This document shows, piece after piece, positions 25,668 through 25,735 of a stretch of DNA of 64,000 bases. The DNA lies in the NCBI RefSeq assembly GCF_003334305.1, contig NZ_QOWS01000011.1. The stretch is one strand, 5' to 3'. Numbering within the stretch: the first letter of the stretch is position 1; each line of letters starts with the position of its first letter. A model generated the notes under the pieces. The model was not told where the DNA came from and searched no databases. It worked only from the letters and a program-made list of their open reading frames with translations. The DNA comes from Escherichia coli. Lineage in GTDB: Bacteria; Pseudomonadota; Gammaproteobacteria; Enterobacterales; Enterobacteriaceae. A program made the translations under genes and the position numbers.

Positions 25668-25735
25668 AATATGAGAATAATAATTATTAACAATTGAATG
25701 CTACCCGAAACGGGTTTATTTATGCCCGTTTCGGG
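25668..25735 (-). promoter_or_regulatory. irp2 promoter region: Fur-box-like site plus YbtA repeat sequence
   Basis: Fur-like aatatgagaataataattattaacaatt, then cccgaaacggg(N10)cccgtttcggg (25704-25735). Confidence 0.6.

Follow-up and report, generated by a model that had tools for sequence, protein, structure and literature searches.

The spacer analysed here is 190 nt long and separates two minus-strand genes, ybtA and irp2, in a 64,000-nt stretch of Escherichia coli DNA (hereafter the window). In the program-made list of open reading frames (ORFs), these genes correspond to a 319-aa ORF at 25819-26778 and a 2041-aa ORF at 19521-25646, respectively. A 441-nt query that covers the spacer matches an E. 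coli chromosome (NZ_CP033850) at 100% identity and was found at 95-100% identity in 2266 of 5426 complete E. coli genomes, all of them annotated with irp2 (HMWP2) and ybtA. The upstream GTG at 25646, which opens irp2 in the mechanical ORF list, was rejected as the start codon, since the RefSeq annotation of the identical sequence uses the ATG at 25628. That is, irp2, the first gene of the irp2-irp1-ybtUTE operon, extends over 19521-25628 (minus strand; ORF list and RefSeq annotation), and its Shine-Dalgarno motif AGGAGG can be read directly at 25633-25638 (minus strand) and is conserved in the alignment. The product of ybtA (25819-26778, minus strand) is the AraC-family regulator of the yersiniabactin genes. 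A model specific to YbtA is absent from NCBIfam, and the search gave only sub-threshold matches to other AraC-type regulator families, all of them in the C-terminal region of the protein; the gene is identified as ybtA because a 100%-identical sequence from E. coli bears the annotation YbtA in RefSeq. Along the minus strand, the spacer reads from the ybtA stop codon through 31 nt to a hairpin, then through 18 nt to ACCCGAAACGGG, CATAAATAAA, CCCGTTTCGGGT, AGCATTCAATT and the Fur box GTTAATAATTATTATTCTC, followed by 44 nt containing AGGAGG and by the ATG of irp2.

The remaining genes of the yersiniabactin island (high-pathogenicity island, HPI) are present in the window in their usual layout, with fyuA at 4312-6333 (minus strand), ybtE, ybtT, ybtU and irp1 between 6464 and 19433 (minus strand), ybtP, ybtQ, ybtX and ybtS from 26945 onwards (plus strand), an integrase ORF at 33335-34378 and a tRNA-Asn at 34759-34834. 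The longest ORF of ybtP starts at ATG 26945 (600 aa), and the RefSeq start in the identical E. coli gene is located 90 nt further in, at about 27035; the choice between the two alters the leader length of the ybtP operon. The integrase ORF (347 aa) covers only positions 82-396 of a 413-position integrase model and appears to have suffered an N-terminal truncation or a frameshift. Beyond fyuA, at 821-3718, two adjacent ORFs of 652 and 268 aa with similarity to intimin and inverse autotransporters look like pieces of one larger adhesin gene, and the region between these ORFs and fyuA (3720-4270) is unusually A+T-rich and poor in ORFs. E. coli TUM14664 (NZ_CP135649.1) carries an IS421 element (IS4-like) downstream of the ybtA stop codon and ahead of the hairpin, at a point corresponding to about 25816 in the window; the insertion parts ybtA from the irp2 control region.

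The repeat pair upstream of irp2

A preliminary description of this DNA had reported the palindromic repeat cccgaaacggg(N10)cccgtttcggg at 25704-25735. This proved exact, and the perfect arms reach 12 nt (25703-25714 and 25725-25736), 10 nt apart. Read towards irp2 on the minus strand, the repeat is made up of a promoter-distal unit ACCCGAAACGGG (25725-25736), which is a YbtA-binding repeated sequence according to the literature and was delimited by repeat search and alignment, a 10-nt spacer CATAAATAAA (25715-25724), and a promoter-proximal unit with its GGGTAG extension, CCCGTTTCGGGTAG (25701-25714). The starts of the two units are 21 bp apart, and the distance from the repeats to the irp2 ATG downstream is 75-108 nt; the adjacent gene is ybtA. 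A search of the 64-kb window for perfect inverted repeats with a loop of 3-20 nt and arms of 12 nt or longer found five distinct ones, of which two fall within the 190-nt spacer; the average over dinucleotide-preserving shuffles was 0.11 per 64 kb. The elements described earlier are far beyond chance. Each unit taken singly is nearly self-complementary (CCCG-N3-CGGG), so that any pair of units will look like an inverted repeat.

The pair had also been called a second copy, and rightly so: the other copy precedes fyuA, at 6421-6452, and one of its arms carries a single mismatch (CCCGAAACAGG, minus strand). The sister module to which it belongs spans 6418-6452 (minus strand) and was recovered by sequence search, alignment and a composite pattern. 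A third, degenerate copy of the repeat is found before ybtP at 26806-26837; with its Fur box it covers 26806-26868 (plus strand; alignment and composite pattern), overlapping the divergent ybtA promoter. The repeat pair is common to the irp2, fyuA and ybtP promoters in sequence, spacing and orientation. When the three promoters are aligned, a repeat unit, an AAATA-containing spacer, a second repeat unit, GGGTAG and a Fur box follow one another in all three, and both GGGTAG and the TAG after the proximal unit are invariant. The composite pattern derived from this alignment (AAATANNNCNGNNNNGGGTAG) has exactly three matches in the 64 kb, each directed at fyuA, irp2 or ybtP, and no match in 100 shuffles.

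The irp2, fyuA and divergent irp6 (ybtP)/ybtA promoters have been reported to carry repeated sequences (RSs) that are specific binding sites of YbtA (PMC5634559). According to the same source, YbtA is an activator of irp2, fyuA and irp6 and a repressor of ybtA itself, and it is proposed to be a homodimer complexed with yersiniabactin (PMC5634559). The same repeats are described in PMC8725597 and PMC11225919, both citing Fetherston et al. 1996 and Anisimov et al. 2005, although some recent papers term the RSs 'putative' or 'predicted' YbtA sites (PMC8725597); qRT-PCR on the dependence of irp2 on YbtA has been reported for a ybtA mutant (PMC11225919). Since the RSs of these promoters are YbtA sites in the literature, from which the binding role is taken, the repeat pair before irp2 is the known YbtA site pair of that promoter.

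The leaders of the three operons show a further pattern. Downstream of their Fur boxes, the fyuA leader (6354-6364) and the ybtP leader (26885-26906) share an element, ATTGTCG...TTTTTGGCGT, that the irp2 leader does not carry and that could be the RS3 of the literature, or else a leader element. Also present in the fyuA leader is GGCGAAACGCC, the core of which, CGAAACG, matches that of the repeat unit CCCGAAACGGG.

Homologues of ybtA with their flanking sequences were obtained by a scan of a genome collection from Klebsiella oxytoca, K. indica, K. michiganensis, two Pectobacterium and Serratia marcescens, together with a decaying copy in S. symbiotica. Identity to the YbtA of the window is 97% in Klebsiella, 55-56% in Pectobacterium and 52% in S. 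marcescens. At every homologue locus fetched, the module is found after ybtA and before the divergent ABC-transporter gene, and in Pectobacterium and S. marcescens a third copy precedes the operon that comes next. Sixteen distinct module instances were compiled from the window, the three Klebsiella species, the two Pectobacterium and S. marcescens, with GGGTAG as the search anchor, which is hence present in all of them by construction. Their consensus reads CCnAnnCGGG-nAnAAATAnAn-CCGAnTCGGGTAG, and the AAATA core of the spacer is kept in 16 of the 16.

These comparisons bear on whether the perfect palindrome works as a nucleic-acid structure, either as an RNA hairpin in transcripts reading through from ybtA (a second terminator, an attenuator or a stabiliser) or as a DNA cruciform. 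The minus-strand RNA containing it (25745-25695, 51 nt) folds at -22.1 kcal/mol (z = -5.9), and the fyuA sister copy begins 12 nt past the ybtE stop codon, a plausible position for a terminator. However, complementarity of the arms is not kept among the relatives. Complementary central triplets (AAA/TTT) are confined to the irp2 and fyuA copies of the HPI, whereas the arm centres do not pair in K. michiganensis (ACCGAAACGGG/CCCGATTCGGG), Pectobacterium (CCCGATACGGG/CCGGATTCGGG), S. marcescens (ACCGTTGCGGG/ACGCATACGGG) or the ybtP copy (ACCAATGCGGG/ACCGAATGGGG). What is conserved as sequence is AAATA, in the would-be loop, and TAG, in the 3' flank, neither of which a hairpin would require. Furthermore, no U-tract follows the palindrome on the minus strand (GGGTAGCATTC), the element is always directed toward the activated gene, and a covariation test gave no signal (80 of 500 shuffles matched the observed value, in an underpowered set of seven sequences). 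A structural role is thus very improbable. Because AAATA and TAG are maintained as sequence while the complementarity of the arms often is not, the comparison of relatives indicates that the perfect palindrome is incidental and that the element is a protein-binding site and not a hairpin; the fold energy of the RNA would then be a by-product. The earlier suggestion of a regulator-binding palindromic repeat therefore stands as regards the regulator, given the shared repeat pair at the fyuA and ybtP promoters and the YbtA sites of the literature, but not as regards the palindromy, which is not itself the functional property.

The Pectobacterium and S. marcescens clusters encode a YbtP-like ABC transporter, a divergent YbtA-like regulator, a small ORF for which no family match was found, and an RhtX/FptX-type MFS transporter. 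Each promoter in these clusters is preceded by the module, which in most cases is accompanied by a Fur box; none is recognisable with the copy that follows ybtA in S. marcescens. In K. indica TOUT106 (3451-3640), the gene order is rearranged, in that the repeat module and fyuA, not irp2, come directly after ybtA; a hairpin downstream of ybtA is missing. It is conceivable, if speculative, that the fixed-geometry module (two CCGAnnCGGG-type units 21 bp apart, AAATA, GGGTAG, and a Fur box 15-16 nt on) is the signature of a wider YbtA-family regulon that includes the ybt-like clusters of Pectobacterium and Serratia, and that the HPI palindrome might in addition serve as a back-up barrier to read-through from ybtA. 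If so, the module could be used to predict operon structure in these little-studied clusters.

The Fur box and the geometry of the irp2 promoter

A Fur-like site had been placed at about 25668-25692, a range that brackets a core 19-mer at 25673-25691 (GAGAATAATAATTATTAAC; GTTAATAATTATTATTCTC on the minus strand, 44 nt from the irp2 ATG). Compared with the Fur consensus GATAATGATAATCATTATC, this 19-mer matches at 15 of 19 positions on the plus strand and at 14 of 19 on the minus strand, and of the 128,000 positions and strands of the window none scores higher and only the ybtA/ybtP Fur box at 26850 scores equally well. The match is imperfect, and eight other positions or strands in the window also score 14/19, which would fit a 19-mer that is A+T-rich merely as the -10 region of a promoter and is no real Fur site. 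However, the 19-mer is base-for-base the site predicted in the irp2 promoter region of Salmonella Infantis pESI (PMC11225919). Purified Fur shifts the pESI promoter fragment within which the site is predicted, in a dose-dependent manner in EMSA, and deletion of fur de-represses irp2 in that organism (PMC11225919). Moreover, counting from the first base of GGGTAG, a Fur-like core, TTATnATT, follows at the same offset of 15-16 nt across genera, in 15 of the 16 instances of the module. We consider it scarcely credible that the 19-mer is not a Fur site. A separate 14/19 match to the Fur consensus on both strands was seen at 9-27 (GAAAACGATGATATTTATC), just before an ORF at 16-693, and may be due to chance.

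The BPROM-predicted -10 element of the pESI promoter overlaps the Fur box (PMC11225919). In the window, the likely -10 hexamer would be TATTAT at 25677-25682 (minus strand), inside the Fur box, as suggested by TAT(T/C)AT, whose distance from GGGTAG hardly varies among most of the 16 instances. A 17-bp spacer counted from TATTAT puts the -35 position on GGTAGC, which bears no resemblance to TTGACA; it would thus be the proximal repeat unit with its extension that occupies the place of the -35 hexamer. A scan of 25400-27100 for consensus sigma-70 promoters found none, and we read this as the mark of an activator-dependent promoter, not as the absence of a promoter. The geometry suggests that the irp2 promoter is probably of class II and activator-dependent, with transcription expected to start near 25670. 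A literature search found no published mapping of the irp2 start site or of the ybtA 3' end.

The hairpin downstream of ybtA

Between the repeat pair and ybtA, the strong hairpin noted earlier at 25755-25787 is indeed present, with perfect 14-nt arms (25755-25768 and 25774-25787) around a 5-nt loop. It is a GC-rich stem in the orientation of ybtA (minus strand), 31 nt past the ybtA stop codon, and a probable intrinsic terminator of that gene. Its tail, UCUUUCC at 25754-25748, is poor in U (four U in the 8 nt of UCUUUCCG), and the other strand has no T-run after the hairpin. The minus-strand RNA of 86 nt containing it (25825-25740) folds at -36.9 kcal/mol (z = -4.8), and none of 200 shuffles was as stable.

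The hairpin could instead be a neutral relic or a dispersed REP-like palindrome through which ybtA transcription continues into irp2. The weak U-tract would fit with this: the tail falls below the U threshold of the consensus terminator scan, which did not call the hairpin. In K. indica, Pectobacterium and S. marcescens, furthermore, no comparable hairpin was found after ybtA, which is followed by a different gene in these organisms. Against this stand the position and orientation of the hairpin relative to ybtA and its distribution and conservation. It is present in a single copy per HPI-positive E. coli genome, so that a dispersed REP-like repeat was rejected. The stem is constant and the loop variable when the copies of E. 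coli, Klebsiella and the Salmonella plasmid are compared. In an alignment of seven sequences, the substitutions mainly affect the loop, the sequence to either side of the stem, and the stretches adjoining the Fur box, the upstream one of which is bounded by GGGTAGC. A 14-bp stem that is equally perfect but different in sequence (AACAAGGCCCGGAT/ATCCGGGCCTTGTT) occurs in K. michiganensis, with TTTTTT behind it, and an 8-bp core of the stem persists in K. oxytoca, with changed stem bases. Three base pairs change on both sides, which is suggestive at most, as 24 of 500 shuffles equal this value in an underpowered set of seven sequences. In addition, the literature treats ybtA as an operon of its own (PMC11225919, PMC5634559). 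Taken together, transcription reading through a non-functional hairpin is unlikely, and the hairpin likely terminates ybtA, as judged from its sequence and surroundings. The proposal that it may terminate ybtA and insulate irp2 thus agrees with position, orientation and conservation, but the U-tract is weak and termination is something that we infer.

The consensus terminator scan did call a 5-bp mini-stem within one repeat unit on the plus strand; this was rejected, as no gene is transcribed in that direction there. Among the Rfam searches, a Thr_leader match (RF00506) reached 27.8 bits against a threshold of 55, on the plus strand and with no following gene, and was discarded as a chance match to the hairpin plus A/T-rich sequence; an anti-hemB match obtained at a relaxed threshold was likewise rejected as sub-threshold.

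The hairpin loop (25769-25773) reads CCTCA / ACCTC in the window, compared with CCCCA / ACCCC in the aligned E. coli, Klebsiella and Salmonella copies. The hairpin region of the window is a minority allele, with 246 of 2263 E. coli copies at least 99% identical to it over 56 nt. Elsewhere in the window, a perfect 15-bp inverted repeat at 4273-4307 (TGTAAAAGGGATACC/GGTATCCCTTTTACA), 5 nt past the fyuA stop codon, is probably the fyuA terminator, and further perfect inverted repeats are located at 43293-43324 and 50359-50389.

Proposed control of irp2 and comparison with known systems

We hold with high confidence that the spacer combines the end of one transcription unit with the regulated promoter of the next, in the form of a terminator, YbtA sites and a Fur box. 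In the mechanism that we propose, transcription of ybtA would end at the GC-rich hairpin (25787-25755 as read on the minus strand), a step deduced from the hairpin itself, and irp2 would consequently depend on its own promoter. YbtA, thought to be a dimer loaded with yersiniabactin, would bind the two similar 11-12-bp units; as the unit starts are 21 bp apart, that is, two helical turns, both units would be presented on one face of the DNA. The proximal unit and its GGGTAG extension would fill the -35 position of a promoter that has no recognisable -35 hexamer, and for this reason direct recruitment of RNA polymerase by YbtA, as a class-II activator, is probable. That YbtA binds and activates is taken from the literature, and the promoter geometry is our own deduction from the sequence. 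At high iron, Fe-Fur would bind the 19-bp box 11 nt downstream of the proximal unit and block the promoter, the likely -10 hexamer TATTAT being contained in the box if the overlap deduced above is correct. The outcome would be an AND-type switch, in which transcription of irp2-irp1-ybtUTE requires both low iron and the siderophore signal.

The control of irp2 by Fur repression and by activation through YbtA and yersiniabactin has been described since the 1990s, and the region analysed here is the described, already known irp2 promoter region of the HPI. Its importance lies in the control of the yersiniabactin synthetases, a major virulence and fitness determinant. What is added here are the exact coordinates, the finding that the palindromy itself is not conserved, and the same module geometry before the operons of distant ybt-like clusters.

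The closest known system is the irp2 promoter of the Yersinia HPI, with its YbtA sites RS1 and RS2 and its Fur box (Fetherston, Bearden & Perry 1996; Anisimov et al. 2005, both as cited in PMC8725597 and PMC5634559). Locus, genes and elements are the same, the window carrying the E. coli copy of the island, and nothing substantive differs from the Yersinia promoter as it is presented through these citations; the hairpin loop of the window is a minority variant. More generally, the arrangement resembles class-II activation by members of the AraC/XylS family (AraC at I1-I2, RhaS and MelR), where the binding units are also about two helical turns apart and the proximal one overlaps the -35 position of a promoter in which a -35 hexamer is not recognisable, as it would at irp2. 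Unlike the units of those activators, however, those of YbtA are nearly self-complementary, so that a direct and an inverted arrangement look alike in the sequence. The nearest functional parallel appears to be PchR, the AraC-type regulator of the Pseudomonas aeruginosa pyochelin genes, which is loaded with a siderophore related in structure to yersiniabactin. The PchR box is a bipartite repeat that adjoins or overlaps the -35 region of Fur-repressed siderophore promoters. By this analogy, the YbtA sites before irp2 would work in the same way as the PchR box (Michel et al. 2005, as cited in PMC8725597); the sequence of the box and the regulator differ between the two systems.
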